Assembly: GCA_014729675.1 (NCBI GenBank)
Contig: WJJM01000039.1
Coordinates: 1,479-65,478 of the forward strand
Origin: Candidatus Woesearchaeota archaeon
GTDB taxonomy: Archaea > Nanobdellota > Nanobdellia > Woesearchaeales > WJKL01
Length of the DNA: 64,000 bases
Direction of reading: 5' to 3'
Position 1 is the stretch's first letter, and the number at the start of each line of letters is the position of its first letter. Positions 4,001 to 62,314 of the stretch are shown here, piece after piece. Position numbers and translations under genes: made by a program. The notes beneath the pieces are model-generated. The model was given only the letters and a program-made list of their open reading frames with translations. It had not been told where the DNA came from and made no database searches.

Positions 4001-6974
4001 TGAGTTTTTCGCTTATGCATCTTTAGATGATAATTTATATATATTGAATGAGAGTGAGAGGATAAATATAACCATAACAGACCAAGAAGATCCATCTGTT
4101 GAGCTTGAATCTCCTGCAGATGAAAAGGTTCTTACAGTAACTTTTGAAACATTTGTATGCAATGTTTCAGACAATTATGGCCTTTCAAATATCACTCTAA
4201 TGGTATGGGATTCTGAAGGTAATGTTGAATATTCATATAGTAAAGAATCAGCAGGTTCAGAAGATAATCTTGAGAAACAATATGTTTTCAGTTCTTCAGA
4301 GGATTACGATTGGAACTGTATAGCTTATGATAGTTTTGGCAACAGAGGAATTGCAGGTTCAAACAATTCACTGAATGTACAGATACCTTCTTTAAATATT
4401 CAGCTTGTAGATCCTGATTCAAATGTGAGCTGGACACAAAATAAATTTGGAAATTTTACTGTGAATTTTTCATGCAATGATTATGATTGCGGAGAGGTTA
4501 ATGTAACCTTAGATCCTTTGGCTGAATGGAGCAATTCGAAACTTGTAAAGATAGACAATGCAGGCAATACTGAACTGATAAATAATAGTGTAAAGATAAT
4601 TTTTGATACACAGAGTGAGATAGCAGAAGGAGATATGCAAGATGATTGTGATGATATAAGATTTATGGATACAGATGATTCAACTGCCTTAGATTATTGG
4701 CTTGATTCTGATACATGTGATACAGAAGAAACAGAGATATGGGTCAAGATACCATCTATAGATTCTAACAGCATAAAGTACATCTATCTTTATATGGGCA
4801 ATGAAAGCGCTGAACAGGGATCAGATGCTAAAGGTGTTTTTCCTAATCAAAATATAAACCATCCTGACTTAAGCGGATATACTGATGTCATATATGTCGA
4901 TGCTGAACTTGGAAATGATATTTCAGGAGATGGAAGCTTAGACAATCCTTATCAGACATTGAGAGAAGCGGCAGATTATGATGATCCAGATGATGCTATT
5001 TATCTTATGCCTGGAACTTATGAAGAAAGAGGGGGTGGCCCTACATTAGATGGGGATCTTATAGGTGCTTTAGGTGGAAAGGTGATTATCAATGCAGGTG
5101 TTTATGGAAATACATGGAGAAGAGCAATATGGCTTACAAACAATGAGCATAATTTCTATAATATCATCTTTGAGCATTATAATGGATCAGACGGATCAAA
5201 CTATTATTTTGGAGATGTGGGTTCTGACAGCATATATTTTTACAACTGTGTTTTCAGCAATGCGGTCTATGATGGGCTTTATCAAGACAGTTATTTCAGG
5301 AATATAGATTATGTGTACTTAAACAATTCATTTGAGAATACGTATCTTAAGTCATTGGGGCAGGCAGAGGTAAAAATATCATTGAATTCAGTAATGAATG
5401 ACTCTGAGTCCTTTACACTTCAGACTACAAGCCTTTATGCAAATGAAACCTCCTATGATTCAGAGTGGCAATTGACATCAGGAGAGTGGGAAAATGAAGG
5501 GACAGGTACAAATCCTGATGGAACTAAGGCCAATATAGGAGTATATGGAGGGGAATATGCATGGGGTTATTGGGGTCCTGCAACTTCTGTAAATGAGAAA
5601 GGCAGAGTTTCAACTATAGTTGGAGATATTCCTTTTTATACAATAACTGACAATCCTTATATAACTGATCTTGATGCAGGTGAATCTCAGATTATAACAT
5701 GGCAAGTAAATGCTACAGGACCTATAGATAATACTTATCTTTTCTTTGTCCATGCAAACTCAACAAGTGACAGCACTATAAATTACAGGACTGAAGATAT
5801 CTATATAACTATAACAGATGAAGGATGCACTGATTCAGATTCAGATGGTTATGATGCTTGTGATCTGAACGGAAATCCGATAGCTGGATGTGATAATCCC
5901 TGTGATTGCAATGATACAGAATTAAATATCAATCCTGGAGAAGAACAGTGCGGGAACTGCATAGATGATGATGCAGATACATATATTGATTATCCTGCTG
6001 ATACAGATTGTTCAAGTTTGGATGATACAACTGAAGATGATGGAGCAGGAGGGAATGAACCTGTATGGGCTGACATATCAGTTGTTGTAACTGATGAAGA
6101 CCTTACAGACACAACGACTACGCTTTCAGATTATATTGTTTCAGGCTGCGATCTTGGCTGCACTTATACTGTTCAGTCAGATTCTGCAGGCATAACTGCA
6201 GATGTAATAAACGGAAATACATTAAGAGTAGTTCCTGATGGAAATTACAGGGGTTATGGAAATGTAACTGTAAGAGCTGCAAATCTTGAAGGGCATTCAG
6301 ATGAATATATTGATGTTAAAGTGTTATCTATACCTGACTTTGGAACAGATATACAGTTGGATGAAAACTATTTTAACGGAGAGAATACCACTGATATTAG
6401 TGCTCTTACAGATATTGTTGGAGGATATCAAAATGAATCTGATCCTCTTCATGCATACTCTAATTCAGTATATTTCTTCTCATTAGAAAGAACACTCATA
6501 GGAAAGGTTACATTTGAAGGATATTTCCCTTTTGTATGGGATCTTCTGCTTTCAGCGTCAAATGTTGTTATAGAGGAAGGATACATCTCTGTTGACTCTG
6601 ACTCTATATTCAAAAAAGTAAGCTACTGGATACATCATCCAATGGCAAAAGTTGAACTTTACAATATAGATCCTGCAGAATATGTGACTGATGGAGAAGG
6701 AGTTCCGATAGTTTATAGGGATGAAGATTTCCATCTTGCAGATGAGGACAGAACAGGCTGGCCTGAATGTGGATCAAATTGTGAGCCAGTTACATGGAAC
6801 AGTACAACCGGAACACTTACCTTTTATGTAGATGAGTTCTCATCACATACTCTTGATAAGTCTAATGGACAAGATCCTCCAGGAGGAGTTCCTGAGTTTT
6901 CTGCAATAGGTATGATCATCGCTATGATTCTAATGGGGATAGGCATGACCATAATTATACATAAGAAGAAATGA
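1002..6974 (+). CDS. Giant (1990 aa) secreted multidomain surface protein with PEF-CTERM anchor; beta-propeller WWIKK repeats, two DUF2341-like jellyroll modules, LamG-like lectin domain, beta-helix-like segment, Cys-rich module
   Basis: AGAGG SD 7 nt before ATG; N-terminal TM/signal LLKALPLVITIILMVVLFF; about 8 repeats of the D..D.VYV.G...(D)WWIKK motif; IRF.D.....L.YEIE.WD....A.VWVKVP......IYLYYGN twice; LamG-like WHHVVYKYDGV; C-terminal GGVPEFSAIGMIIAMILMGIGMTIIIHKKK. Confidence 0.7.
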   Translation: MKEGSDRKNRLLKALPLVITIILMVVLFFSLSNLLGSSIDVKDEDGNIVGKFIVEEREDGKYDLSLESSGYSVGSSSEEIVSSVEIKGSETDSINSRLGYVDDNMINTQVFAVENANVESAEITVEKFGDVKHIYKCVDFDIDNFRCNDWEKTDIPFIDNGESITFTVDGFSGYGGGADIFIGWDKKIDYVGEHDRAYDVVVDSNDDVYVVGRLSQNQTFNYDQDWWIKKYNRTGYELWEKIYNRNGGDEAIAAALDSDDNIYIAGTAENIVNVSSGVDWWIKKLDSSGNEIIVGWNKSFSGDSLLGNDYLHDIAVDSEDNVYVAGYGIDLISGGSNYDPWLMKFNSSGHKEWEKIYNFGSPAEFQDIGLDSEDNVYVVGSTSASPLEKGWLIMKFSPSGNGYWNKTLDLSQYGSGAYAVALDDEDNIYVGGFATNYVSEIPTSSADVVIKKFNSSGIEDPNLNLSFDYNWQADIIRSMIIENGSLYTAIQAGQSSGDSMWGIKKFNLSGDEDPNWNMTFISEAITSTYSHAILFGIDSDSFNDIYVAGFGTDLVDDDSGNDWWIKKFSGNLTQAEYNESLLKDVIIELVEPSSNSEVEKNKFFDFTVNVTCTDDEDCGLLNVSLDPVSWWDGDWRYRNTITIPSGKVSSDLEDFPMLVKFDSDDIDFTDAKSGGEDIRFLDSDENLLSYEIERWDSSEQKAEVWVKVPVISSTESTVLYLYYGNDDASDAQDPDDVWDDNFNGVWHLTENVSGTGDTGVYIDSTDNNNDGTDYVSSDSKIGKIQGGQGFDGDDYIDVPDDSSLDNSVYTITAWINMSSGGYQLDGIFAAQTYDYIIAGGNGDFEAIRGNKYFKDVGTNLDDGQWHHVVYKYDGVDDLFFIDGISETPGATGSASYTDMIAIGRSKWGYFDGDIDEVRVSNFARSDAWIIAEFDNTNDPSDFYNLGEKEIGSKSGLISTEIGETPFYTTTDNPYQVDLDSGESQLVTWEVNATGLYSIVHEFFAYASLDDNLYILNESERINITITDQEDPSVELESPADEKVLTVTFETFVCNVSDNYGLSNITLMVWDSEGNVEYSYSKESAGSEDNLEKQYVFSSSEDYDWNCIAYDSFGNRGIAGSNNSLNVQIPSLNIQLVDPDSNVSWTQNKFGNFTVNFSCNDYDCGEVNVTLDPLAEWSNSKLVKIDNAGNTELINNSVKIIFDTQSEIAEGDMQDDCDDIRFMDTDDSTALDYWLDSDTCDTEETEIWVKIPSIDSNSIKYIYLYMGNESAEQGSDAKGVFPNQNINHPDLSGYTDVIYVDAELGNDISGDGSLDNPYQTLREAADYDDPDDAIYLMPGTYEERGGGPTLDGDLIGALGGKVIINAGVYGNTWRRAIWLTNNEHNFYNIIFEHYNGSDGSNYYFGDVGSDSIYFYNCVFSNAVYDGLYQDSYFRNIDYVYLNNSFENTYLKSLGQAEVKISLNSVMNDSESFTLQTTSLYANETSYDSEWQLTSGEWENEGTGTNPDGTKANIGVYGGEYAWGYWGPATSVNEKGRVSTIVGDIPFYTITDNPYITDLDAGESQIITWQVNATGPIDNTYLFFVHANSTSDSTINYRTEDIYITITDEGCTDSDSDGYDACDLNGNPIAGCDNPCDCNDTELNINPGEEQCGNCIDDDADTYIDYPADTDCSSLDDTTEDDGAGGNEPVWADISVVVTDEDLTDTTTTLSDYIVSGCDLGCTYTVQSDSAGITADVINGNTLRVVPDGNYRGYGNVTVRAANLEGHSDEYIDVKVLSIPDFGTDIQLDENYFNGENTTDISALTDIVGGYQNESDPLHAYSNSVYFFSLERTLIGKVTFEGYFPFVWDLLLSASNVVIEEGYISVDSDSIFKKVSYWIHHPMAKVELYNIDPAEYVTDGEGVPIVYRDEDFHLADEDRTGWPECGSNCEPVTWNSTTGTLTFYVDEFSSHTLDKSNGQDPPGGVPEFSAIGMIIAMILMGIGMTIIIHKKK

Positions 6975-10158: not shown

Positions 10159-10352
10159 TAGGTCAACAAGTTGCCCTGCGATAATTATTCAAAAATAATA
10201 ATAATCCATAACGCTCGCTTTGCTCGATACTATAGCGCTGAGACAGAGGCGTTGAGTTCTGGCTTCGCTTAAGCGAATTGAGCACTCAGATTGGCTCGTA
10301 CTGAGACTGTGCACGAACAGCGAAGCTGTGAGTGCCATAGGTGGGATTGATT
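10159..10352 (+). repeat. Copy A of dispersed GC-rich structured element family (taggtcaaca...gataacgctcgctttgctcg...gagacagaggcgttgagttctgg...gagactgtgcacga...gtgagtgccata.gtgggattga)
   Basis: Conserved blocks shared with copies at 18070, 52965, 61990 and 41285(-); TATA-like tttaaaaaa about 12 nt upstream; internal hairpin ACAGCgaaGCTGT; intergenic after alaS. Confidence 0.6.
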
Positions 10353-10595
10353 TGTATTTTGATTAAGGAATATTTTCTAATAAAGTTATTTGCCATGGAT
10401 TGAGATCTTTAAAATCCTGATCGCAAGGCAGGCTTTAAAAAATATATCCAATCTGGCTTAGGGATAGGATCAATAATCTTTAATCTTTTATCAAGAAAAT
10501 CATGAACTAAGTTATTAAAATTTAAATATATCTTATTATCTTTATCTTTGCATCAAAACTAAATATTTTTAAAGCTGAGTGTTTTGCTTTTTATC

Positions 10596-18069: not shown

Positions 18070-18292
18070 TAGGTCAACAAATTTGTTTTGTAGATTATTA
18101 AAAAGTTCAATCCTTACTGATAACGCTCACTGCGTTCGCTAACTCTACCTCTGAAACAGATGCGTTGAGTTCTAAATTATCTTAACTGGATGCTTCAGTT
18201 GATTAGAATCAAAGCCAGAAATCAGCTTAGCTGCGGAGAGAGACTGTGCACGACCATTGAAGTTGTGAGTGTCATCAATGAGATTGAAGGAT
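18070..18292 (+). repeat. Copy B of dispersed GC-rich structured element family
   Basis: taggtcaaca... gataacgctcac... gcgttgagttct... gagactgtgcacga... gtgagtg.cat... gattgaagg; TATA-like tttaaaaata about 10 nt upstream; 5-prime ttcaatcc and 3-prime ggattgaa-type ends complementary. Confidence 0.55.
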
Positions 18293-18425
18293 TTTAAACT
18301 TAAGAAAATAAATAATGTATCATATCTAGGATTGAATCTTAGTTTGCTTTTTGAGAATAATAAAAAATCCTGATCTTAAAGCAGACTTTCTCAAAAAACA
18401 ATATATGTCTTTAGATTTAAAATAT

Positions 18426-22989: not shown

Positions 22990-23499
22990 ATTTCCACCTT
23001 ATATTTTTTTTCAGGAGAATAAAGAATTTTTGCTTTATCTCCAGCGTAATCCAGCTTGCACCAGATCACCTCTTGATATTATCAGTTATTTTTGTCTGGT
23101 TTAAAAAGGTTGCTGTTTTTGAGTTGATCTTTGTGATTTACAATTTAATTTGATTATTGTCTGTTGGAGCAAAAATAATTTTAGCTTAAGATTTAATCAT
23201 TATCAATCATTGGTTTGTCGGACACTTTTACAATGACGTTAAGCAGACAAACGTAAAGAAACTTTCGGTTGATAACAATGTCTTTGCATAACAGATAGAT
23301 TTATATGTTTCGGTGTTTTTTATCTTGTTATGGCAGAAAAAGATTTTGTTGAGATGATGCTGAAGAAGGCAAAAGAGAAAAAAGAGACTGAGGCACAGGA
23401 CAGGACAGGGAATACTGGCCACAGGGAGATAGAAGATCTCGTTGAGTCAATAAGAGAATGGAAGCAGAAGAAAAAAGAGTGATTCCAATCAAAACAAAG

Positions 23500-23625
23500 A
23501 AAATAGCCCTGCTGTTTGAACCTGAGGGTTAACACCCTACAGCTACCTGTTGTGGGTTTCGCAGGTGAAAAGTTAGATTCGCTTCGCTCATCTAGAAACC
23601 TGCTCAAGCCCACCAAACAAAGATA
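23500..23625 (-). repeat. tRNA-Gln-flanking conserved element, copy 1 (about 125 nt, immediately 3-prime of tRNA-Gln(TTG) on the minus strand)
   Basis: 97% identical to 24653..24776; proximal end mimics the tRNA T-arm/acceptor 3-prime half (GGTTCAAACAGCAGGGCT vs GGTTCAAATCCGGGCAGGGCT). Confidence 0.55.
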
Positions 23626-23646
23626 ATAAATAAAGAATAAACAAAT

Positions 23647-23740
23647 AGCCCTGCCCGGATTTGAACCGAGGTCCCAGGACCCAAAATCCTGGATGATTGG
23701 CCATTGTGCACAGCTTAAAGCTGTTCTACACTACAGGGCT
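23647..23740 (-). tRNA. tRNA-Gln (anticodon TTG) with a noncanonical 21-nt intron in the D-loop
   Basis: Manual fold: acceptor AGCCCTG/CAGGGCT, anticodon stem CAGGA/TCCTG with loop TTTTGGG, T-arm CTCGG-TTCAAAT-CCGGG. Relative to the paralog at 24794, AACAGCTTTAAGCTGTGCACA is inserted after GTGTAG. Confidence 0.6.
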
Positions 23741-23780
23741 GTAGATACTCTGAGAATTATGAATCTGTTTATAAAATTTA

Positions 23781-24140
23781 TTATTTAAAATAAGTTTGAG
23801 ATGATTTTATCGCTTTTATCTTTTCTTTTTCTAGATTGACTATAAGCTTGAGATAAGGAAAAAGGTCTTTTTCTTTCTGTTGGGTCATCTTTAGCCCTTT
23901 GTCGGTCAGCTTTAGAAACTGGGTTTCATATCTTATGAATTTTTTCTTTTCAAGTATCTCCAAGTTTTTGTACAGGCCTCTTTGGGACTTATCTATTATC
24001 TTCAGGGACTGCAGGAGCCTGATGAAATCTATCTTTGAGACTGAAGCTTCCAGAGGCTTGTCTTCAAATTTCCTGTTAAGTTTTTTAAGATATGTTTTTA
24101 ATGCATATAATATGAACTCATATTTTTTGTTCAGCTTCAT
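23781..24140 (-). CDS. Hypothetical protein (K-rich, possibly nucleic-acid binding)
   Basis: ORF only. Confidence 0.3.
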   Translation of the reverse strand: MKLNKKYEFILYALKTYLKKLNRKFEDKPLEASVSKIDFIRLLQSLKIIDKSQRGLYKNLEILEKKKFIRYETQFLKLTDKGLKMTQQKEKDLFPYLKLIVNLEKEKIKAIKSSQTYFK

Positions 24141-24241
24141 ACTGCAAAGTATTGTTTTTTGGCTATATAAGCTTTTTGTTTGGATTGACTACAATAGTGT
24201 TAAAAGTAATTTTTATATAGTATCAGGTTATCTTTAGTATT

Positions 24242-24643
24242 ATGGCTAAGAAAATACTTTTTGTCTGCCTTGGGAATCTTGTGAGAAGCCAGATGGCTGA
24301 AGCTTATTATAATCATCTTACAAGATCGAAAAAAGCTTCAAGCGCAGGAATACTTGGTTATGTTTCAGAAAAAAACAATAAACCTTCTAAAAAAGCGATA
24401 AAAGTGATGAAAGAAGAGGGCATAGATATCTCTAAAAGTGATGTTACTGCACTTGATCTGGATATAATCGATGAGAGTGATGAGATATATGTGCTTTGCA
24501 GCAAGCAGGAATGCCCTTATTATCTTAGAAATTCAGAAAAAGAAACAAATTATTGGGATATTGATGATCCTATAGGCAAGAGCATAGAAGAGTACAGGAA
24601 GGCAAGAGATCAGATAAAGAAGCTTGTTCTTGAGATAGTTTAA
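24242..24643 (+). CDS. Low-molecular-weight protein-tyrosine phosphatase / ArsC-type arsenate reductase family
   Basis: ILFVCLGNLVRSQMAEA = C(X)4-5 R S P-loop of the LMW-PTP family. Confidence 0.65.
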   Translation: MAKKILFVCLGNLVRSQMAEAYYNHLTRSKKASSAGILGYVSEKNNKPSKKAIKVMKEEGIDISKSDVTALDLDIIDESDEIYVLCSKQECPYYLRNSEKETNYWDIDDPIGKSIEEYRKARDQIKKLVLEIV

Positions 24644-24652
24644 GAAAAAAAT

Positions 24653-24776
24653 AAAATAGCCCTGCTGTTTGAACCTGAGGGTTAACACCCTACAGATACC
24701 TGTTGTGGGTTTCGCAGGTGAAAAGTTAGATTCGCTTCGCTCATCTAGAAACCTGCTCAAGCCCACTAAACAAAGA
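24653..24776 (-). repeat. tRNA-Gln-flanking conserved element, copy 2
   Basis: Near-identical to 23500..23625; lies 3-prime of tRNA-Gln(CTG). Confidence 0.55.
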
Positions 24777-24793
24777 CAAAGAATAAAGAAAAT

Positions 24794-24891
24794 AGCTCCG
24801 GGCAGATTTGAACTGCCGTCCACGGATTTCACTTTTGAGCTGGGGGCTCAAAACCAGAGTCCGCGATGATTGGCCACTACACTACGGAGCT
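24794..24891 (-). tRNA. tRNA-Gln (anticodon CTG) with about 26-nt intron at the canonical 37/38 position
   Basis: Acceptor AGCTCCG/CGGAGCT; anticodon stem GCGGA/TCCGT; loop CTCTGG + intron hairpin TTTTGAGC-CCCCA-GCTCAAAA; T-arm GGCAG-TTCAAAT-CTGCC. Confidence 0.6.
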
Positions 24892-24990: not shown

Positions 24991-25446
24991 ATGAATCTTA
25001 GGCTTTTTAAACAGGTTATCAGAAGAAGTAATGCTCTTAGGCAGAAGGCTCAGATAAGCATGGAGTACCTTATCATAGTGGGTTTTGTGGCTGCAGTTAC
25101 TGTTCCTATGATAATAATATTTACAACACATTCTACTGAGATGAATGAGAGCATAATATCAAATGAGGCTGAAAACATAGCTGCAAAGATAGTGGATGCA
25201 GCTGAGTCTGTATATTATCTTGGAGAATTCTCAAAGACCACATTCAGGGTGAGCATGCCTAAGAACATAAATTCTATAACTTTGGGGAATAATGAGGTTG
25301 TTATCTTTGTAGATAAGATGAATGGTTTTGATGAAGTTGTCAAGTACTGTCCTGTACCTATAAACGGAAGTGTGTCCAAGGAGCCGGGACTGTATGACAT
25401 AGTGGTAGAGTCAAGAGGGGATTATGTGTGGGTAGAAAGCAACTAA
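24991..25446 (+). CDS. Type IV pilin-like protein with class III (prepilin) signal peptide
   Basis: Leader ending ...RQKA then QISMEY (Gln+1, Glu+5) followed by hydrophobic helix LIIVGFVAAVTVPMIIIF. Confidence 0.6.
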   Translation: MNLRLFKQVIRRSNALRQKAQISMEYLIIVGFVAAVTVPMIIIFTTHSTEMNESIISNEAENIAAKIVDAAESVYYLGEFSKTTFRVSMPKNINSITLGNNEVVIFVDKMNGFDEVVKYCPVPINGSVSKEPGLYDIVVESRGDYVWVESN

Positions 25447-25835
25447 CTTTATCTGGAAAAGCTCAAGTTTCTATGGAGTTTGTATTTTTGGTGAGTCTGG
25501 CTTTTATGATCATGACGGTATTCATAGCTTCGACAAGAAGCGAGTTTGATGAGTTGAGGAGCGAGGAAGAGAGGACATTGGTCAGGGATGTGGGGATGAT
25601 GGCACATTCTGAACTGGTTATAGCGTCAAATGTTGAGGACGGTTACAGGAGGATCTTTGATATTCCTGAAAAGCTTGACGAATCTATAGAATATGACATT
25701 GAGATATCAAACAATACTCTTTTGGTATATACTGACGATTATGAATCTGTGTTCAATGTGCCTTCAGTCACAGGACAGATACAGAAAGGCAACAACAGAA
25801 TAAACAAGACAGGCGGAACAATATATTTGAATTAA
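25428..25835 (+). CDS. Type IV pilin-like protein with class III signal peptide
   Basis: GTG start; ...SGKA then QVSMEFVFLVSLAFMIMTVF; overlaps preceding pilin gene by 19 nt. Confidence 0.55.
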   Translation: MGRKQLTLSGKAQVSMEFVFLVSLAFMIMTVFIASTRSEFDELRSEEERTLVRDVGMMAHSELVIASNVEDGYRRIFDIPEKLDESIEYDIEISNNTLLVYTDDYESVFNVPSVTGQIQKGNNRINKTGGTIYLN

Positions 25836-25836
25836 G

Positions 25837-26310
25837 ATGGAAAAAAAATCCCAGATATGGTTTACAGATTTTATCATAGGTGTGATGATATTCCTTATAG
25901 TTGTTCTTATATATTATGGGTATTCTTACAGTTTAAACAGTGATCCCGGAGATATCACAAAAGATCTCATAATGGAGGCAAAGAGCATAAGCTCAGCACT
26001 TATCAGCAGGGGTTCTCCTTCAGACTGGAACAAGAGCAATGTGGAGGTTATAGGCCTTACAGACGGGAACCAGAGGATCGTGGAGGAAAAACTGGGAATG
26101 TTTGCAGAGATGGATTATGAAGAGACAAGAGATATATTCAGGACGCCTTATGATTATCATTTTTTTCTCAAGGAAGCAAACGGCAGCATAGTTGATGAAA
26201 ATGGGGAAATTGGCCTTAGTGGGAACAGTTCAGACAATCTTGTTTCCATAACAAGAATAGTTATATACGATTCAAGGCTTGTAAATATGGTGGTGCATGT
26301 ATGGGACTGA
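25837..26310 (+). CDS. Membrane-anchored pilin-like / minor pilin candidate
   Basis: N-terminal KKSQIWFTDFIIGVMIFLIVVLIYYG helix, rest soluble; within pilus locus. Confidence 0.4.
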   Translation: MEKKSQIWFTDFIIGVMIFLIVVLIYYGYSYSLNSDPGDITKDLIMEAKSISSALISRGSPSDWNKSNVEVIGLTDGNQRIVEEKLGMFAEMDYEETRDIFRTPYDYHFFLKEANGSIVDENGEIGLSGNSSDNLVSITRIVIYDSRLVNMVVHVWD

Positions 26311-28196
26311 GAAAAGCCATGTTCTTCACTACAGATGCATTAGTTGCATCATCTATCCTTCTTGGAGGTATATTGATCATATCATCTATATACATAAGTG
26401 AGCAGACCACATCACATCTCAACTATCTTTCTCAGGATATAATAAATTCGTTAGAGGCATTGAAGATAAGGGAGATTAACAACAGCTATGTAGATGAGCT
26501 TGTCAGCAACGGAAATATAACTGACCTTAACAATTCTATACTCCAGCAGGCAGGGGAATTCTGGGCTGAAGATAAGATAGGTCTTGCAAGTGATTTTCTT
26601 GAGAATACAACTGACCAGCTAATCCCTGAAGTTTATGGATTTGGGATATGGATAAACAACGAGCAGATATACAAGAGAGACAACCCGCCTCCAAGATCTA
26701 CATCATCTGCAAAGAAAATAATCAGCGGGATAGACAAGGAAAAACCTATAGACGGTTTCATCTCAAAAGCAAGGGCAAACAACTTTGTAAAAAGAAGTAC
26801 AAGAATAATATCTTTTTCGCCTGAAGGCGCAGGATGGGATGGAAATGACTGGGATAATCCTGGAGAGGCTGTAATAGACAAATATTTTGAGCTTTCTTCA
26901 GGAATGAACATAACAAACTCTACGATGTATGTTTCCCTGCATATAGAGGACGACGGTCCAGACTGGGAGGTTGTAAATATAAACAATGGAACATGCACTG
27001 TAAACAGAGACGAGATAAATTTTTTAGGAGGGGAAGGAACATTTGATATAATAGATGTTTTTGGCTGTATAAATACAGGACAGAACAGCATAAGGCTAAG
27101 GCTCAGGAATCTGGGATATAATGGGCATGTACATCCCGGAATGCTGTTAAGAGTTGATTATACTGTCAATGAGTCAGCCGGTTCATATAATGACAGTTTT
27201 TCAGAAAGATATTTTTTTGACAATGTGGTAAGTAATGAAGGGGCTGACGGAGAGAGTGGGGCATGGAGCATGGTGCCTTTCTTTATCCCTGAGAATGCAG
27301 AGAACATAACTGTCACAGCCCACATCGAGGGAAGAAATATAAGGGATTATACTGGATGGGGATTGTTCTATTCATGGAGCGGATGGAGATGGGCGAGAGA
27401 TTATGACTATATTTTCTTTATAAATGATGATGATTTTTTTGATAGGGATGGGAGTCCTTCTATGAATCCTTCTTATGATTATTCTGCTGAGAATCTTGAA
27501 GATGAGATAGTAGAGGGTACAAATGTTGTCAGTGTATATTTCAACAATTATGCAGACTATGAGTGGGGTTCAGGGCAGCCGCAGATATATTCTGACCCTT
27601 TTGATGACCCTGACGGTTCATCATATATAGAAGTCAATTACACTCTTCCTGAAACCGAAGCCCCTTACGGAAGCATAAAGATAAATGAGATAAAGGAGTT
27701 CGGAGGGTTGGCAAACAGGGAGAAAGAGGAGCATTTTAGCTTTCCTTCACAGGCTGTCCAGATGGGAGAGATTCTTCTTCATCTTGTGCAGCAGTATTCA
27801 TATATTGTGGATGTGTGGGCAAGCACATACAGCCCTGCTGACAATCTTGTATTTTCTGCTCCATCTTCCAGAGCAGTCCCCACTACAATGTTTGTACAGA
27901 ATGATAATTTTGAAATATCATCTTCTGCAAACAATTATGTAAGGGCGAGAGACAGGAACCTTAATGAGATACTTCCTGAAACAGCTGTAGAGTATAATTT
28001 TTATCTTCCTTCTTTTGTAGGCTATGGAGATGTTTTCTCAAGCCAGGAGGGAGCTGAGCAGGATGCTCTTGACAGGCTTAATCAAACTCTTGGAGATTTT
28101 ATATCTTCAGACGATATTCTCGTAGAGTCCAGTGATATGAGAAATGTTCCTACTATGTGGGGTCCTGCTGTGATGGAGGTGAGGGCATGGCACTAG
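26301..28196 (+). CDS. Large N-terminally anchored secreted protein of pilus locus (possible tip adhesin/minor pilin)
   Basis: RKA then MFFTTDALVASSILLGGILII prepilin-like N-terminus; 631 aa; overlaps flanking genes (operon). Confidence 0.4.
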   Translation: MGLRKAMFFTTDALVASSILLGGILIISSIYISEQTTSHLNYLSQDIINSLEALKIREINNSYVDELVSNGNITDLNNSILQQAGEFWAEDKIGLASDFLENTTDQLIPEVYGFGIWINNEQIYKRDNPPPRSTSSAKKIISGIDKEKPIDGFISKARANNFVKRSTRIISFSPEGAGWDGNDWDNPGEAVIDKYFELSSGMNITNSTMYVSLHIEDDGPDWEVVNINNGTCTVNRDEINFLGGEGTFDIIDVFGCINTGQNSIRLRLRNLGYNGHVHPGMLLRVDYTVNESAGSYNDSFSERYFFDNVVSNEGADGESGAWSMVPFFIPENAENITVTAHIEGRNIRDYTGWGLFYSWSGWRWARDYDYIFFINDDDFFDRDGSPSMNPSYDYSAENLEDEIVEGTNVVSVYFNNYADYEWGSGQPQIYSDPFDDPDGSSYIEVNYTLPETEAPYGSIKINEIKEFGGLANREKEEHFSFPSQAVQMGEILLHLVQQYSYIVDVWASTYSPADNLVFSAPSSRAVPTTMFVQNDNFEISSSANNYVRARDRNLNEILPETAVEYNFYLPSFVGYGDVFSSQEGAEQDALDRLNQTLGDFISSDDILVESSDMRNVPTMWGPAVMEVRAWH

Positions 28197-29143
28197 GAAA
28201 AAAAGGTGTGTTTTTTACTTTTGTGGCAGTTGTCTTTCTCTCACTGCTTATCTTTTCTTTGTCAGTAGGAAATAACTATCGGCTCAGGCAGAGAACATTT
28301 GCTCTTGAGACAAGGATAGACAGCATGAGCAAGTTTATCTCAAATATCGAAAACGATATGGAAAGAGGCATATATATCTCGGGATTCAGAGCATTGATAT
28401 GTCTTGAAGAACATGTTATAGAAAACGGAGAGTATCTTGATGATCTTGATTCTAGTTTTAGGGAGATGTTCTTCAATGGGACTGTCAACAGTACAAATTC
28501 TTCTCTTATGATAAACAATACATTTACAGATTGGATGGAGAATATAAAGACAGAGGCAGACAAGATAGATATAATATTGAACATATCTGTAAAGAACATA
28601 AGCCTGTACCATGATAATCCATGGCAGGCAAGGATAGATGTCGAGGCTGAAACAACAATACATGACAAGAAACAGACATCAAGCTGGACAAGAGACAAGA
28701 ACATAACTGCATATATAGATCTTGAGGGTTTTGAGGATCCATTCTACAGATTGGGAACAAACGGTCTTATGGAAAATAGGATAGAAAGGAAAAACCACAG
28801 CCAGCTTGTTTTAGGAACAGATATCTCTAATCTTCTTGATCATTGCGAAAAGGGGGATTATATAGCTTTCAGCGGAGCTCCAAGCTTCCTTATGAGGCTT
28901 GAAGGAAATTTTTCAGAGTCAGAGTATGGGATCGAGAGTCTCGTAGATATAGAAGAGCTTGAGCTTATCGGGCTTACACCTAAAGACAAGAGCATAGTGG
29001 ATCACATCTATTTTGGAGCTGAAGATCCTGATAAATATCATATACAGGGGGCACCTTCCTGGTTTGAACTGGACAATGGGACAAACATGAACGGAAGCAT
29101 ACATAGGCATGAAGCTTATGAAGTTGAAGATATTGTAGGTTAA
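28157..29143 (+). CDS. N-terminally anchored pilus-locus protein (minor pilin candidate)
   Basis: GKKG then VFFTFVAVVFLSLLIF prepilin-like N-terminus (alternative ATG start at 28187). Confidence 0.4.
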   Translation: MGSCCDGGEGMALGKKGVFFTFVAVVFLSLLIFSLSVGNNYRLRQRTFALETRIDSMSKFISNIENDMERGIYISGFRALICLEEHVIENGEYLDDLDSSFREMFFNGTVNSTNSSLMINNTFTDWMENIKTEADKIDIILNISVKNISLYHDNPWQARIDVEAETTIHDKKQTSSWTRDKNITAYIDLEGFEDPFYRLGTNGLMENRIERKNHSQLVLGTDISNLLDHCEKGDYIAFSGAPSFLMRLEGNFSESEYGIESLVDIEELELIGLTPKDKSIVDHIYFGAEDPDKYHIQGAPSWFELDNGTNMNGSIHRHEAYEVEDIVG

Positions 29144-29226
29144 GAAAATGCAGTATAGACGTACACTTAGGAGATTATTGGCAAAAAGAAAGCTTTTAAA
29201 TATGAATTTAGATATTATCAGTTAAT

Positions 29227-30416: not shown

Positions 30417-32063
30417 ATGGCAAAAAAGAGGAAAAAAAGAGCTTCAGCAAAATCAAGGTCCAGCCATAGGCATATTTCTAGAAAGAATCAAAAAGATCAA
30501 AAGATCCATAAGACAAAACACAGCATGAAAAGCAAGCATGTTTCAAAACAAGGATCCAAAAAAAAGGAAAGCGGCAAGACTGGATCAAATATAAAACTTC
30601 TAAATTCATATAATATCCGTTCAGGAGGCATACCTGTAACAGTTAAGATATATTCTCAAGAAGATGAGTTTGTACCTTTATATACTGTCCAGCTTTCTAC
30701 TCTGGGAAAGACTACAGCTATGATGCTGGAGAAGATAAGGGAGGAGCTTATCGACAGGGTAAATCTGGGGATTGTAGATATTTCTGACAAGAAAAATGCA
30801 GACATTGCTGAGAAGAAATTTTCTGAGGCTACACTTACACTGATAAAGAAATATTTTCCAAGCCTTGATGCTGAGACAGAAAGGTTTCTTACATCTTATC
30901 TTGTGAAGAAAAGTTTAGGGATGGGTGATCTTGAACTTCTTATGAGCGATGCAAATCTTGAAGAGATAGCTGTAAATTCTGCAAGCGAGCCAATATGGGT
31001 GTATCATAAGCAGTTCGGTTGGCTAAAGACAAATATTATACTTGATAATGAAGCCCAGGTGCAGCATTATGCTACTATGATAGGAAGAAGGGTAAACAGG
31101 CAGATAACAGTACTTGAGCCCCTGATGGACGCTACTCTTCTTACAGGGGACAGGGTGAATGCAACACTTAATCCTATATCTTCCACAGGAAATACCATAA
31201 CTATAAGAAAGTTCGCAGCCCAGCCCTGGACAATAACAGATTTTTTAAGGGTAAGGAGCATATCTCCAAGCGCAGCTGCTTTGATATGGGAATGTGTTCA
31301 TTATGAGATGTCAGGGCTGATAGCAGGAGGAACTGCTTCTGGAAAGACAAGTATGCTGAATGTGGTGAGTAATTTTTTCCCGCCTAACCAAAGGATAATA
31401 AGCATAGAGGATACAAGAGAGATAAAGCTGCCTAAGTTTCTGCATTGGGTGCCAATGGTTACAAGGCTGGCTAATAATGAAGGGAAGGGAGAAGTAACTA
31501 TGCTTGATCTTCTTGTGAATAGCCTTAGGATGAGGCCGGACAGGATAATAGTCGGGGAGATAAGAAGGAAAAAGGAAGCAGAGGTACTTTTTGAATCAAT
31601 ACATACAGGGCACAGTGTATATGCAACTGTTCATGCGAACAATACAGAAGAGACCATAACAAGGCTGACAGCTCCGCCTATAGAGGTGCCGAAAAGCATG
31701 CTTCCAGCAGTGTCTATGCTCATAGTCCAGTACAGGAACAGAAGGTCAGGACTTAGGAGGACGTTTGAGTTTTCTGAGATAAAGAAAGACGGAGATCCTA
31801 ATGTTTTGATGAGATATGATGTTTCAAAAGATGTACTACAGAGAAAGTCAAATTCAGTAGCTATAAGGGACAATCTTGAACTTTATACAGGGGCATCCCG
31901 CAGCAGCATAAAAAAGGAGCTGGCAGAAAAAGAATCTGTGCTTAAGTGGCTTGTAAAGCAAAAGATAAATTCTGTAGACAGTGTAGGAAGAGTGATGGCA
32001 GAGTACTATACAAATAAAGACCATCTTATGAAGATTGTAAGATCAAACAAGCCTTTGAGGTGA
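30417..32063 (+). CDS. Type IV pilus/archaellum assembly ATPase (FlaI / PilB / TadA / VirB11 family)
   Basis: GGTASGKTS Walker A; IISIEDTREIKLP and RPDRIIVGEIR (Asp/His boxes) typical of secretion ATPases; basic low-complexity N-terminus. Confidence 0.8.
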   Translation: MAKKRKKRASAKSRSSHRHISRKNQKDQKIHKTKHSMKSKHVSKQGSKKKESGKTGSNIKLLNSYNIRSGGIPVTVKIYSQEDEFVPLYTVQLSTLGKTTAMMLEKIREELIDRVNLGIVDISDKKNADIAEKKFSEATLTLIKKYFPSLDAETERFLTSYLVKKSLGMGDLELLMSDANLEEIAVNSASEPIWVYHKQFGWLKTNIILDNEAQVQHYATMIGRRVNRQITVLEPLMDATLLTGDRVNATLNPISSTGNTITIRKFAAQPWTITDFLRVRSISPSAAALIWECVHYEMSGLIAGGTASGKTSMLNVVSNFFPPNQRIISIEDTREIKLPKFLHWVPMVTRLANNEGKGEVTMLDLLVNSLRMRPDRIIVGEIRRKKEAEVLFESIHTGHSVYATVHANNTEETITRLTAPPIEVPKSMLPAVSMLIVQYRNRRSGLRRTFEFSEIKKDGDPNVLMRYDVSKDVLQRKSNSVAIRDNLELYTGASRSSIKKELAEKESVLKWLVKQKINSVDSVGRVMAEYYTNKDHLMKIVRSNKPLR

Positions 32064-32095
32064 TATGAATCTTTGACTCAACATCTGAGAGAATA

Positions 32096-32884
32096 GTGCA
32101 GTCCATCCCTTCTCTTAAATTCAAGCTTAAGCAGGCAGGGATGAAGGATAATCCTGTCAGTTTTGTAAAAAAGACGTTGTTTACATCTTTTTATATGACT
32201 ACAGGGCTTATACTCGTAGCTCTTGCTATGCTTTCAGAAAAAATAGTCCTGATGATAATACTTATCCTTCTTTTCCCTTTGATATTTGCATTGATGTTCT
32301 TTTATTTTGTGAAGCTTCCAGATATGAAGATAATAAAGAAGAGGAAGGCGATAGACAGAGAGGTTGTATATGCAGGAAGATTTTTGATAGTGGAACTAGA
32401 GTCAGGAGTGCTGCTGTATAAGGCTATGGCAAATGTCGCTGAAAGCTATGAGGAGATAGGCAAGGCTTTCCAGGATATAATAACAAGCGTAGATCTTGGA
32501 ACAAGCATAGAAGATGCTTTGAATCACACTGTAGAGTTTACACCTTCTCCAGATTTCAGGAGACTTCTTTGGCAGATAATAAATGCCCTGAAGACAGGTT
32601 CAAATGTTTCTGAGTCTCTTAAGTCTGTTGTAGAGCAGATAACAAAGGAGCAGACTATAGAGATCAAGACATATGCAAGAAAACTTAATCCATTTGCTAT
32701 GTTTTATATGATCATAGCTGTGATACTCCCTTCACTGGGAATAACCATGCTTATAGTATTGTCAAGTTTCTTGTCCATAAACCTAAGCCTTCCTATACTT
32801 ATAGCTGTTGCAGTCATGCTAGGGATACTTCAGCTGATATTTTATGTTGTTATAAAATCTTCAAGACCTGCGGTGAGCGTATGA
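32096..32884 (+). CDS. FlaJ/TadC-like polytopic membrane protein (T2SS-F domain), first half of split platform protein
   Basis: TM helices flanking a cytoplasmic helical domain; 4-nt overlap with next gene. Confidence 0.55.
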   Translation: MQSIPSLKFKLKQAGMKDNPVSFVKKTLFTSFYMTTGLILVALAMLSEKIVLMIILILLFPLIFALMFFYFVKLPDMKIIKKRKAIDREVVYAGRFLIVELESGVLLYKAMANVAESYEEIGKAFQDIITSVDLGTSIEDALNHTVEFTPSPDFRRLLWQIINALKTGSNVSESLKSVVEQITKEQTIEIKTYARKLNPFAMFYMIIAVILPSLGITMLIVLSSFLSINLSLPILIAVAVMLGILQLIFYVVIKSSRPAVSV

Positions 32885-33933
32885 AATTTTTCCAGAAGAT
32901 AAAGGAAAAAATTGAGAAAAAGAAGAAGAAAAAGCTTGAGAAAAAGTTAAAGAGGCAGACAAAGCATTATATGCTTGACCAATACCTGAAAAAGGCAGGT
33001 ATAAGCATACAATCCCATCTACTGTCCAGAGGACTTTTTAAGTTTATACTCTTTATAAATATCATATTATCTATCTATGTGCTTTTCCTTCTGGCTTCAA
33101 AAGGAGGATATCCTCTTGCATATATAATATTCATAATACTGCTGATATGGGTGTTTGCATTTTTCCTTTTTTTAGGAGTGGTGTGGCTTGGGTTCTATAT
33201 ATTTATCGACTGGAGGATATTCCAGAGAAAACTCAGTATAGAAGAGGTTCTTCCTGATTTTCTTTATCTTACTGCAACCAATATAAGGAGCGGGATGACT
33301 ATAGACAAGGCATTGTGGGTAGCTGTAAGGCCCAGGTTTGGAGTGCTGGCCAGAGAGATAGAGACAGTCTCAAAAGAAGTGATGAGCGGAAAAGAGCTTA
33401 CAGATTCCTTGCAGGCATTTGCAGACAAGTATGAGTCTGATATTTTGAAAAGAAGTATAAATCTTCTCATAGAAGGTATAAAAAGCGGTGGAGAGATAGG
33501 GGAATTGTTAAACAGGATAGCGACAAACATACAGGAAAGCAGAATAATGAGAAAAGAGATGGCTGCAAATGTCATGACCTATGTCATCTTTATAACTTTT
33601 GCAGCTATAGTTGCAGCTCCTGCATTGCTTGCTTTGGCAAGCCAGCTTATAATGATAATAGGGAACTTAACTTCAAGGTTAGATGTCCCTGCAACAGGAA
33701 GCATGATGTTTTCCCTGACTGAAGTTGCTGTTACTCCAGGAAACTTTAAGATATTCTCTTATATATCTTTGTCTATGACAGCTTTCTTTTCAGCTATAAT
33801 AGTGGCAACAATACAGAAAGGAAATGTTAAAGAAGGATTGAAGTATATTCCTATCTTTATAGCTGTGGCTATTAGTCTGTTTATAGCATTTTCTTATATA
33901 ATGGATAAAGTGCTTAGCGGAATATTTGTTTGA
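32881..33933 (+). CDS. FlaJ/TadC-like polytopic membrane protein (T2SS-F domain), second half
   Basis: Same architecture as preceding ORF; together about 610 aa, matching the size of a single FlaJ. Confidence 0.55.
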   Translation: MKFFQKIKEKIEKKKKKKLEKKLKRQTKHYMLDQYLKKAGISIQSHLLSRGLFKFILFINIILSIYVLFLLASKGGYPLAYIIFIILLIWVFAFFLFLGVVWLGFYIFIDWRIFQRKLSIEEVLPDFLYLTATNIRSGMTIDKALWVAVRPRFGVLAREIETVSKEVMSGKELTDSLQAFADKYESDILKRSINLLIEGIKSGGEIGELLNRIATNIQESRIMRKEMAANVMTYVIFITFAAIVAAPALLALASQLIMIIGNLTSRLDVPATGSMMFSLTEVAVTPGNFKIFSYISLSMTAFFSAIIVATIQKGNVKEGLKYIPIFIAVAISLFIAFSYIMDKVLSGIFV

Positions 33934-41165: not shown

Positions 41166-41284
41166 ATACTTGGTCTCTTCCTGCTCTGCAGGGGGAGATT
41201 TTTTTATTTTATTCATTAGATGATTCTATATTGTTTTGAAAATCTCTAAATTCTAAGATTTAATATTCCTAAAAATCAAAAAAG

Positions 41285-41400
41285 ATTTCAATCCTATCGA
41301 TGGCACTTACAAGCTTCGCTTGTTCGTGCACAGCCTCAATACGATATAAGCTGAGTTCTGGCTCTGTTGTAGAAATAAGAGCTCTCTGTGACATTAGCAT
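41285..41400 (-). repeat. Copy E (minus orientation, 5-prime-shortened) of dispersed GC-rich element family
   Basis: rc reads ...agccagaactcagc..ggctgtgcacgaacaagcgaagcttgtaagtgccatcgataggattgaaatc; closest to copy D. Confidence 0.5.
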
Positions 41401-41421
41401 AATGGATGAAATTAAAGAATA

Positions 41422-41958
41422 TTATCTCTTAAAGACTATCTTTTTCTGGCCAGAATATAACCCCATCTTTGTCATGGCTTCAAATTGGTCCTTGCTTACA
41501 ATTAAAGGGGAGACTATGAAATCGTATTTTTCTCTTATCTCTCCGCAGATCTCTTTTATCTTACCATTATCTATATTTTCTCCAATCAGCATGAGATTGG
41601 CTCTTTGGTTGGACTCTTCTCCATGCAGTACAACTGCTTTTATCTCATATATGTTCCTTATCTTATCTATGAATAATTGCAGGACTTGCTTGTCTTTCTT
41701 TAGCATCTCATAGAGAAATCCTGTCCTTTCTGTATGCCTGAACTTATAGAATTTAGAGTTTTTTCTGACTATAGGATCTATGATCTCAAAATCCATGAGC
41801 TTTACAAGAATGCGGTATGTTGAAGCTGGTGAGACCTTTGCTGCCTTGGAGATCTCTCTCAGATACATGCCTTCTTCAGAATTATCATTAGCTAATATCT
41901 GCAGGATCGACAAAATCTTCTGATCAAACAATTGTTGGAGAAGCTCTATATCCTTCAT
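41422..41958 (-). CDS. Winged-helix transcriptional regulator (TrmB/MarR-like) with C-terminal domain of unknown function
   Basis: LREISKAAKVSPASTYRILVKLMDFEII HTH. Confidence 0.45.
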   Translation of the reverse strand: MKDIELLQQLFDQKILSILQILANDNSEEGMYLREISKAAKVSPASTYRILVKLMDFEIIDPIVRKNSKFYKFRHTERTGFLYEMLKKDKQVLQLFIDKIRNIYEIKAVVLHGEESNQRANLMLIGENIDNGKIKEICGEIREKYDFIVSPLIVSKDQFEAMTKMGLYSGQKKIVFKR

Positions 41959-46938: not shown

Positions 46939-47044
46939 CGCTCCCTCAGGGATTTGAACCCTGGTTTTAGCCTTATTGCAAATGAGCATCTTTAGAATGC
47001 AGTTACCGCAAGGCTACGTACTATCCAGGCTATACTAAGGGAGC
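46939..47044 (-). tRNA. Intron-containing tRNA (about 32-nt intron in anticodon loop); anticodon most likely GCG (Arg), GAT (Ile) not excluded
   Basis: Acceptor GCTCCCT/AGGGAGC, D-arm GTAT..GTAC with A20, anticodon stem TAGCC/GGCTA enclosing 39 nt, T-arm CAGGG-TTCAAAT-CCCTG, discriminator G. Confidence 0.55.
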
Positions 47045-52847: not shown

Positions 52848-52964
52848 ACATGTGATAACATTTTAAAATAAAATTCAATATTTTTCTTCTAAGTCAGCAT
52901 AGCTACATTGCAATTATTATTACCAATTAAAGTTTTCATATGTAATAATCTAAAAATCCCTATC

Positions 52965-53142
52965 GATAACGCTCGCTTTGCTCGCTAACCTTACCACTGA
53001 GACAGAGGCGTTAAGTTCTGGTTTAGATTAAAAGGACTGAGCACTCGACTTAAATCGGAGAGAGACTGTGCACGAGCAGGTTTCCAGACGAGTGAAACGA
53101 GTCTGACTTTTCACCTACGAGTGCCACAAATGGGATTGAAAG
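52965..53142 (+). repeat. Copy C core of dispersed GC-rich structured element family
   Basis: gataacgctcgctttgctcg...gagacagaggcgttaagttctgg...gagactgtgcacga...hairpin CAGAC-11nt-GTCTG...gagtgccacaaatgggattgaaag. Confidence 0.6.
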
Positions 53143-53269
53143 TTCTAATTCTGCTTTTTATCAAAAAATAAAATATGCCAAAAATAATTTACTATGGGCA
53201 GGATTTCAATAATAGATTAAAGCCTGACTTAGAAATAGAATTAAAAACTTTTAAAATCAAGATAAAAAA

Positions 53270-62158: not shown

Positions 62159-62314
62159 AAAATCTTGATCTACCTTTTTATTCAACAAAAATCAGCATCT
62201 GCCATGGACGGGATTGGAATTTAATCTGCTTAAGAAGGATATTTAACTATGGATCATGCTGTGCTCAATCTTTGAAAATGCCTAAATATAATGGGAAAAA
62301 TCTCTTTAAATATT

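Follow-up and report, generated by a model that had tools for sequence, protein, structure and literature searches.

The window analysed here, 64,000 nt of contig WJJM01000039.1 from a Candidatus Woesearchaeota archaeon (GenBank assembly GCA_014729675.1), carries two intron-containing tRNA-Gln genes, with the anticodons UUG and CUG, each of which is followed on its own strand by a near-identical element of about 146 nt. We have established the anatomy of this element, the homology of its tail to a tRNA end, the hairpin module that it shares with a repeat family elsewhere in the window, and a pattern of duplicated tRNA ends in related archaea. The explanation that we favour, with moderate confidence, is that the element is a composite and probably non-functional DNA scar, in which a decayed end of tRNA-Gln(UUG) became joined to a hairpin module of the local family, and which was then copied or gene-converted between the two loci.

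Anatomy of the element and of the tRNA-Gln genes

The features in question are as follows, in window coordinates.

23492..23637, minus strand: repeat copy 1, which starts about 9 nt past the discriminator of tRNA-Gln(UUG) and takes in the U-rich spacer.
24645..24790, minus strand: repeat copy 2, directly after tRNA-Gln(CUG), with the UUG-type acceptor strand CAGGGCUA at its end.
23504..23528, minus strand: degenerate tRNA-Gln(UUG) 3' end, CCCUCAGGUUCAAACAG-CAGGGCUA and then a U-run (24657-24681 in copy 2).
23525..23538, unstranded: small hairpin AGGGU-GUUA-ACCCU, adjoining the T-loop-like segment (24678-24691 in copy 2).
23552..23613, unstranded: long hairpin with a GUGGG/CCCAC outer stem, CAGGU/ACCUG, UAGAU/AUCUA and the loop GAGCGAAGCGA (24705-24766 in copy 2).
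~52930-53150, ~10175-10365, ~18070-18295 and ~62010-62230, all minus strand, and ~41270-41470, plus strand: copies of the dispersed repeat family.
23646..23740, minus strand: tRNA-Gln(UUG), with exon 1 at 23726-23740, the intron at 23704-23725 and exon 2 at 23646-23703.
23704..23725, minus strand: non-canonical D-loop intron of 22 nt at positions 15/16, with a relaxed bulge-helix-bulge (BHB) motif, the central helix GUGU/GCAC and the bulges AGA and AAU.
24793..24891, minus strand: tRNA-Gln(CUG), scored at 44.8 bits by the Rfam tRNA model and, when spliced to 73 nt, called as tRNA-Gln(ctg).
24828..24853, minus strand: canonical intron of 26 nt at 37/38, an 8-bp hairpin with the BHB bulges GGU and AAA.

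The two copies of the repeat differ at 7 of their 146 positions (95% identity) and stand amid unrelated flanks. A near-identical element of about 125 nt behind each tRNA-Gln gene had been noticed in the initial annotation, and the 126-nt core described there indeed contains 3 mismatches. The 3' end of tRNA-Gln(UUG) reads CCUCGGUUCAAAUCCGGG-CAGGGCUA, followed by a U-run; the tail of the repeat keeps the T-loop, the acceptor 3' strand, the discriminator and the trailer of such an end, and has lost the 3' strand of the T stem, which is reduced to CAG. The earlier description of this end as an imitation of the T-arm and acceptor strand stands for the T-loop and the acceptor strand, over only the last ~25 nt, and fails for an intact T stem. 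On the minus strand CAGGGCTA was found only at the 3' end of tRNA-Gln(UUG) and in the two elements, and GGTTCAAACAGCAGGGCTA has exactly two occurrences in the window (37% G+C), as against 0.01 expected by chance. The window holds, in degenerate form, a direct repeat of a tRNA 3' segment downstream of the intact tRNA. Copy 2 lies directly behind tRNA-Gln(CUG), yet its end is of the UUG type, the acceptor strand of tRNA-Gln(CUG) itself being CGGAGCU.

The core of each copy (23550-23605 and 24703-24758) was shown by blastn of the window against itself to match 53074-53129 in the opposite orientation (82% over 56 nt, E=4e-10), and is homologous to the first hairpin of an intergenic family of about 150-220 nt which has five other copies in the 64 kb. 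Only this internal module, and not the ends of the family, is present in the tRNA-linked element. An element scattered over non-tRNA loci would have spoken for a simple repeat, as was pointed out in the initial annotation; it is the central 56-nt module that does occur at such loci, while the whole element with its tRNA tail was found only at the two tRNA-Gln loci. Between the tRNA-linked hairpin and that of the 53-kb copy three compensatory changes were seen, namely two from U-A to C-G in the stem and one from C-G to U-A at the loop-closing pair. Copies of the family begin with UUCAAUCCYAUYNAUGGCACUC, continue with a variable hairpin and then UCGUGCACAGUCUC, and the three longest (at 53 kb, 10 kb and 18 kb) finish in a hairpin with a GAGCAAAGCGAG-like loop. 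Their termini are T-loop-like inverted repeats, in which the starting TTCAATCCYAT is met at the end by an inverted match such as ATAGGGATT or AAGGATTGAA. Four of the five dispersed copies follow a gene of like orientation at a distance of 85-200 nt, and the family has no match in Rfam. At 62 kb two family heads (UCCAAUCCCGUCCAUGGCAG and UUCAAUCCUAUCUAUGGCAC, at 62150-62230 and 62010-62165 on the minus strand) stand about 75 nt apart, which may reflect tandem or nested insertion, or a miniature repeat-spacer arrangement. The reverse complement of the 5' end of the 53-kb copy (GUGCCACAAAUGGGAUUGAAAG) resembles the end of a clustered regularly interspaced short palindromic repeat (CRISPR).

Both tRNA-Gln genes are real, as had been proposed. 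After splicing each gives a 73-nt cloverleaf, called by ARAGORN as tRNA-Gln(ttg) and tRNA-Gln(ctg), with the anticodons UUG and CUG and identical D arms. Given unspliced tRNA-Gln(UUG), ARAGORN returned a truncated version only (23646-23715), and the canonical tRNA, with the D arm of its CUG isoacceptor, was obtained once the 22-nt D-loop insert AACAGCUUUAAGCUGUGCACAA (intron sequence AACAGCTTTAAGCTGTGCACAA) had been removed. BHB motifs were drawn by hand from the sequence at both genes. In the UUG gene the D-stem strand GUGU (10-13) pairs with the intronic GCAC and the outer helix is weak; the position of this intron in the D-loop was correctly assigned at the outset, its length of 21 nt was not. 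In the CUG gene the Rfam tRNA model recognized a 29-nt insert in the anticodon loop, and the central helix of the BHB motif forms three of its four pairs (C32-G, U33.U, C34-G and U35-A), which places the intron at 24828-24853 and therefore makes the anticodon CUG. The hairpin intron of about 26 nt at the canonical 37/38 site, claimed beforehand, is accordingly borne out by BHB geometry, Rfam and the spliced ARAGORN call. When introns were disallowed ARAGORN missed this gene entirely, and when they were allowed it reported 24793-24891 as tRNA-Pyl(cta), a call which we treat as an artefact and in which the cut lies two bases earlier and misfits the BHB motif; TAG is an ordinary stop codon here and ends 9 of the 35 long open reading frames (ORFs) of the window. 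Both genes are functional, each needing the archaeal splicing endonuclease for a single intron. For annotation this means that standard tools miss or miscall both tRNA-Gln genes (one is truncated, the other labelled tRNA-Pyl(CUA)), and that the tRNA-like tails downstream should not be entered as tRNAs or tRNA halves.

All four tRNA genes of the window have introns, and all four are preceded about 30 nt upstream by a TTTTAWAAA TATA-like box. The two that remain, tRNA-Arg(GCG) at 46939-47044 with an intron of about 32 nt and tRNA-Asn(GUU) at 57125-57211 with one of 14 nt, both on the minus strand, have no downstream duplicate of their own 3' ends.

Duplicated tRNA ends in related archaea

By its S15 relatives the window belongs to a Woesearchaeota-type archaeon of the DPANN superphylum, whose members have small genomes. 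Relatives were drawn from S15-anchored loci of species-representative genomes, and a single close relative was obtained (locus L001), a 1.8-kb contig which starts inside the locus and whose S15 is 92% identical to that of the window. At the equivalent place L001 has two tandem units of 93 nt. The last 22 nt of unit A are identical to the 3' end of tRNA-Gln(UUG) in the window, and unit B ends in GGUUCAAACAGGCCAGGGCUA, which is the degenerate form of the window with two extra bases. By blastn the tRNA end and trailer of the window match L001 at 92% over 37 nt, the S15 region at 83% and the region of a 50-amino-acid ORF at 79%, and the interior of the element cannot be aligned. What is kept in L001 from the element is the loop UGAGCRAAGCGAA, placed on a different stem, the GGUUCAAA segment and CAGGGCUAUUU. 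A long-range stem closing the 5' and 3' ends was predicted in the window copies; it is not conserved in L001 and was therefore not used. Taken on sequence, the tail of the element appears to descend from the 3' end of tRNA-Gln(UUG).

The pairing of tRNA-Gln(UUG) and tRNA-Gln(CUG) upstream of S15 is a conserved synteny, and tRNA genes in six other loci, tRNA-Gln in L003, L004, L051, L026 and L058 and tRNA-Arg in L067, are followed by one to three units of unrelated interior, and at the end of every unit 15-25 nt exactly repeat the 3' end of the tRNA concerned. Counting unit A of L001 and the locus L006, exact copies of this kind were found in eight loci. The units of L003, L004 and L051 measure about 65-105 nt and consist of an A/U-rich spacer, an antisense T-loop/T-stem segment (for example GCGGAUUUGAACC), a small central hairpin and the sense copy GGUUCGAAUCCGCC-CGGGGCUA. 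They form long palindromes with T-arm-like arms, occurring in both orientations, in which the outermost bases track the local T stem (CCGCC behind UUG and CCGUG behind CUG) and the centre is shared; in L003 two identical units stand in tandem. In L004 the unit behind tRNA-Gln(CUG) has a 28-nt centre that is the reverse complement of the one behind tRNA-Gln(UUG) (2870-2975 versus 5012-5115), the result either of an inversion of DNA or of insertion in both orientations. The endpoints of this inverted centre lie in the T-loop-like inverted arms, which is consistent with recombination at the arms. In four of the six units of these three loci the U-run stands behind the unit instead of behind the tRNA, as an insertion of DNA inside the tRNA 3' end, displacing the original end downstream, would lead one to expect. 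Within 700 kb of sequence such antisense and sense T-arm pairs were found only beside tRNAs.

Two units each were found behind tRNA-Gln in L026 and behind tRNA-Arg(GCG) in L067, composed of GGAUUUGAAC, a hairpin-rich insert, CAAUCC and then the T-stem 3' strand and acceptor strand; the insert is 43-48 nt long in three of these units and about 11 nt in the second unit of L026. On the reverse strand of L058 two non-coding units of 216 nt, each ending in GGTTCAAATCCTGGCAGGGCTAT, come after tRNA-Gln(CUG) (~370-1640 of the reversed locus); next to them stands a pair of small genes, recognized by eye from ORF translations as a RelE-type toxin-antitoxin, after which comes a degenerate copy of GGTTCAAATCCTGGCAGGGCTAT. 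The locus resembles a small cassette array set on a tRNA gene. Cargo was also found in L006 (3524-4430) and L051 (3046-4045), where a 17-20-nt direct repeat of the tRNA-Gln(CUG) 3' end, TTTTAATCCGCCCGGGGCTA, lies 0.8-0.9 kb downstream of the tRNA and brackets two genes, coding for a 69-amino-acid membrane protein and a 191-amino-acid HD-like protein (functions judged by eye). The T-loop sequence AATCC marks the start of the distal repeat, which overlaps the stop codon of the second gene. A hairpin unit precedes the bracketed genes in L051 and is absent from L006.

Two observations on individual loci may be added. In L051 protein genes begin 20-25 nt past the tRNA-like end of the hairpin units and have a Shine-Dalgarno-like GAGGTGA (1336-1362 and 3212-3235); they may share a transcript with the tRNA and be freed from it at that end. 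In L022 (~770-900, plus strand) there is a candidate tRNA-Gln with an insert after about position 10 and a second one in the anticodon region, preceded by the antisense T-arm-like segment ACGGATTCGAAC.

Among 72 tRNAs called by ARAGORN, a sample biased towards tRNA-Gln, a downstream duplicate of the last 15 nt within 1.5 kb was found for 9 of about 32 tRNA-Gln genes and for 1 tRNA-Arg gene, and for none of about 39 remaining tRNAs. A scan of metagenome contigs with a tRNA-end pattern retrieved 23 DPANN loci, mostly of tRNA-Gln, among which units were present only in L058 and L067 and the degenerate end of the window type in none. The next relatives by S15 (71% identity), found by a protein search and four contig look-ups, have no tRNA-Gln at this locus, and for the exact phosphatase protein encoded between the two repeat copies no database record was found.

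Origin of the element

Read together, the direct repeats of a tRNA 3' end, exact or decaying, whose left limit falls in or close to the T-loop, their stacking, the occasional cargo, the single inversion and the variable presence seem to be the trace of site-specific recombination into tRNA genes. We infer that a recombinase was the cause of this pattern. The 3' tail of the element would then be an attR-like copy, of the sort that small mobile DNAs leave behind when they undergo site-specific recombination at the T-loop and 3' end of a tRNA gene. Mobile DNA might have entered the 3' end of tRNA-Gln and duplicated some 17-25 nt of the tRNA; the inserted DNA would later have been lost or replaced, leaving a short structured remnant, and the duplicated T arm would have decayed from UCCGGG to CAG. 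A last step, in which the element was copied or gene-converted between the neighbouring tRNA-Gln loci, would account both for the 95% identity of the copies and for the UUG-type end behind tRNA-Gln(CUG). Of the three explanations offered in the initial annotation (a remnant resembling an att site, a co-transcribed small RNA and a pseudo-tRNA) it is the first that fits best, given that only the last ~25 nt are derived from a tRNA and that the relatives have 3'-end duplicates which vary in presence and in some cases enclose cargo. A retro-copy or primer-binding-site origin was rejected, since the plus strand holds the complement of the tRNA end without that of CCA, so that the source of the copy must be the gene rather than the mature tRNA.

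It is known that archaeal integrases prefer the 3' ends of tRNAs and that the 5' limits of their sites vary and include the T stem-loop (review PMC8371274), and tRNA fragments arising from the integration of mobile elements have been described in Caldiarchaeum (PMC3293823). Several points nevertheless weigh against recombination as the origin of the element. Pfam and PHROGs scans of the ~35 large ORFs of the window revealed no integrase, transposase or Cas gene, and none was evident among the ORFs of the relatives' loci. Only about 120 nt of non-coding DNA, with no cargo, separate the tRNA of the window from the partial copy. A simple integration into tRNA-Gln(CUG) predicts a distal end of the CUG type; since the end observed is of the UUG type, one must postulate a further step, either gene conversion or transposition. 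The identity of the copies amid unrelated flanks and the compensatory changes in the hairpin could also be produced by selection on an RNA. Finally, no matching attP-like site came to light in viral, phage or plasmid sequences, either by a scan of viral contigs or by blastn against phages and plasmids, and the viral-contig scan for the inverted T-arm pair returned phage tRNA arrays only.

The genes around the two copies are the following.

23330..23482, plus strand: ORF of 50 amino acids converging on copy 1, which begins 10 nt past its stop codon; conserved in L001 (79% nucleotide identity).
23781..24140, minus strand: ORF of 119 amino acids between the two tRNA-Gln genes, with a similar 122-amino-acid ORF in L051.
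24242..24643, plus strand: low-molecular-weight protein tyrosine phosphatase (LMW-PTP) gene (Pfam LMWPc, E=2.5e-20) converging on copy 2, which begins 2 nt past its stop codon.

Two small genes had been reported between the copies, one for a hypothetical protein and one for an LMW-PTP/ArsC protein. The phosphatase is confirmed by its Pfam match, and the 119-amino-acid ORF has no match in Pfam or PHROGs. Its counterpart of 122 amino acids, likewise placed between both tRNA-Gln genes in L051 (a likeness judged by eye), together with the identity of the phosphatase, shows the intervening genes to be host genes and not cargo. Adjoining the tRNA-Gln region, at 25000-29150 and 30417-33933 on the plus strand, proteins with N-termini like class III signal peptides are encoded beside a T2SSE-type ATPase and two T2SSF-type membrane proteins, a cluster which constitutes an archaeal type IV pilus or archaellum-like locus.

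It was also considered that the element might be a functional structured small RNA, either co-transcribed with the tRNA or serving on the plus strand as the 3' untranslated region or terminator of the converging genes, and this we regard as possible, if rather doubtful. On the tRNA strand the enzymes of tRNA processing would release it at its tRNA-like 3' end, and the hairpin with the GAGCGAAGCGA loop, which is similar to a kink-loop (K-loop), would bind a protein such as L7Ae. Read-through from the tRNA is plausible, since no run of at least 5 U lies between tRNA and element on that strand and a run of U4-U7 comes after the element. The predicted fold is better than that of shuffled sequences, with z of -3.8 and -4.6 for the two copies on the plus strand, as against -1.9 and -2.7 on the tRNA strand. 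It is the plus strand that has the G.U wobbles and accordingly folds better, so that the structured core runs antisense to the tRNAs; this undermines the version that depends on co-transcription. The near-identity of the copies, their compensatory changes, the location of 6 of 7 copies of the module just 3' of a gene in the same orientation, and the retention of the GAGCRAAGCGA loop in L001 on a completely different stem would all suit an RNA under selection, but covariation in the hairpin is equally expected of a mobile DNA repeat that makes use of hairpins, and the interior of the element is not conserved in its closest relative. No promoter of the TATA-like kind that precedes the four tRNAs lies upstream of the element, and no Rfam model matched it even at E<=5-10. 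The scarcity of such units and the lack of the degenerate end among the 23 metagenome loci also speak against this explanation. The co-transcribed small RNA of the initial annotation is thus weakened, by its unconserved interior, its antisense hairpin module and its absence from those other DPANN loci.

No arrangement of C/D or H/ACA boxes was found, nor, in the GAGCGAAGCGA loop with its tandem G.A pairs, the 3-nt bulge of a true kink-turn (K-turn). As named classes, a C/D small RNA was rejected for want of a RUGAUGA/CUGA pair, an H/ACA small RNA because, although ACA follows the stem, there is no K-turn at the right place in the upper stem, and 5S rRNA because its motifs misfit; none of the three had an Rfam match. 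The loop motif GAGCRAAGCGA, made up of tandem G.A pairs, a 2-bp helix and a GAA or AAA triloop, recurs in several Woesearchaeota sequences, where the stems that carry it are unrelated, and possibly serves as a protein-binding module of the K-loop-like kind. On the minus strand of the window it occurs at 23581-23591, 24734-24744, ~10215-10225 and ~52973-52983, and further sites lie at 11-21 and 104-114 of L001 and at ~2401-2411 of L008; the variant GAGUGAAACGA exhibits covariation from C-G to U-A.

A third proposal holds the element to be a member of the dispersed family resembling miniature inverted-repeat transposable elements (MITEs), whose T-loop-like termini would guide its landing beside tRNA genes, the tail being a transposon end or a target duplication. 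The inverted termini of the dispersed copies do resemble a T-loop, the family has at least five copies in 64 kb, and the palindromic units of L003, L004 and L051, with T-arm-like arms in both orientations, are of a similar build. Nonetheless we judge this origin unlikely, as the tRNA-linked element has the first hairpin of the family without its ends, no target-site duplication was seen around the dispersed copies, and no transposase was found by the Pfam and PHROGs scans of the window. The tail also matches the neighbouring tRNA-Gln(UUG) specifically, acceptor strand and trailer included, and a transposon end would not track a host tRNA in this way. A MITE-like nature overlaps with the explanation by a recombination scar and leaves that tracking unexplained.

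That the element is part of a disrupted tRNA, either a trans-spliced 3' half or an intron-containing amber-suppressor tRNA, is scarcely credible and close to refuted. In its favour, the acceptor strand, discriminator and U-run of its end are exactly as in a tRNA gene, CAGGU-UU-CUA-GA...ACCUG can be read as an anticodon arm with CUA alongside a Gln-type acceptor strand, and split and multi-intron tRNAs do exist in other reduced-genome archaea (PMC3218864). Against it, the element has no 5' acceptor strand or D arm, and the window has no complementary trailer or partner 5' half; the sole other AGCCCTGTAG-like string there is part of a coding region and shows nothing of a tRNA. With its 3' strand reduced to CAG the T stem is unable to form, and neither the Rfam tRNA model nor ARAGORN detected a tRNA. 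The supposed anticodon belongs to a hairpin stem that the dispersed repeat also has, and is CCA in the homologous copy; TAG serves as an ordinary stop codon, and we could draw no BHB motif joining the tail to the upstream tRNA. The pseudo-tRNA suggested initially holds for the 3' tail only, the rest being a hairpin module of the dispersed repeat that is not tRNA-like. Alternative cis splicing of the tRNA onto the tail was also rejected, as the 13-nt antisense-T helix of the relatives lies 16-60 nt from the putative 3' exon instead of leaving a 3-nt bulge.

Significance and comparison with known systems

Understood as a recombination scar, the element is a known kind of feature in a lineage from which it has not yet been described. 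DPANN archaea, and Woesearchaeota among them, would join the lineages whose tRNA 3' ends collect such scars, with tRNA-Gln as a recurrent hot spot at which small non-coding units and cassettes of one or two genes pile up with no integrase nearby. If an organised system lies behind these arrays, it would offer very small archaeal genomes a route of gene gain; if not, they are ordinary genomic debris. A more far-reaching proposal, which we put forward as speculation and think improbable, is that the 3' end of tRNA-Gln (and occasionally of other tRNAs) in Woesearchaeota is the docking site of an undescribed integron-like cassette platform. Units ending in a copy of the T-loop and acceptor strand, often after an inverted T-arm copy, would there be stacked, inverted and exchanged by a recombinase encoded elsewhere. 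In a variant at the RNA level, covered by the same low estimate, the inverted T-arm segment would act as a splint that aligns the cleaved tRNA body with the spare 3' end for re-ligation. In either case the element of the window would be a decayed member of that system.

The introns of both tRNA-Gln genes are ordinary for archaea. BHB introns at non-canonical tRNA positions have been described in Thermoproteales, Nanoarchaeota and other DPANN archaea (reviews PMC4090602 and PMC4033280), and the 22-nt D-loop intron and the 26-nt intron at 37/38, with their BHB-like junctions, likewise fit the known pattern, as do isoacceptors that differ in the position of their introns; no difference from that pattern was seen.

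The model of tRNA disruption proposed for Caldiarchaeum subterraneum (Sugahara et al. 2012, PMC3293823) resembles our case in that part of a tRNA is found close to an intron-containing tRNA gene with the same identity, and mobile DNA is held responsible. The Caldiarchaeum fragment comes from the 5' part of the tRNA and is separated from the gene by 1.8 kb, in which a recombinase gene is located, whereas here a 3' tail lies about 140 nt away and no recombinase was found.

A looser parallel, by analogy only, is offered by the cis-mobilizable or miniature att-flanked elements of bacteria (CIMEs) and by integron cassette arrays. Unlike in integron arrays, the attachment site is the 3' end of a tRNA, and neither attC-type R'/R'' cores nor an intI-like gene was seen; what is shared is the stacking at one site of small recombinase-less units which end in a common recombination sequence, some of them carrying single genes and some inverted.

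A close likeness is to the attL/attR repeats of integrative elements that target the 3' end or T stem-loop of tRNA genes, such as the archaeal tyrosine recombinase elements of the SSV, pNOB8, pT26-2 and SNJ2 types, reviewed in PMC8371274, the coverage of which lies outside the DPANN archaea. As in those systems, the window has a partial direct repeat of a tRNA 3' end past the intact tRNA, its left limit falling in or close to the T-loop, and the bracketed cargo, stacked units and variable presence in the relatives are also alike. The window differs from them in that no integrase was found nearby, and in having a non-coding hairpin "insert" of only ~120 nt, a degenerate distal copy and an end of the wrong (UUG) type behind tRNA-Gln(CUG). 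A further difference from those systems is that several of the relatives carry an extra, inverted copy of the T-arm beside the direct one.

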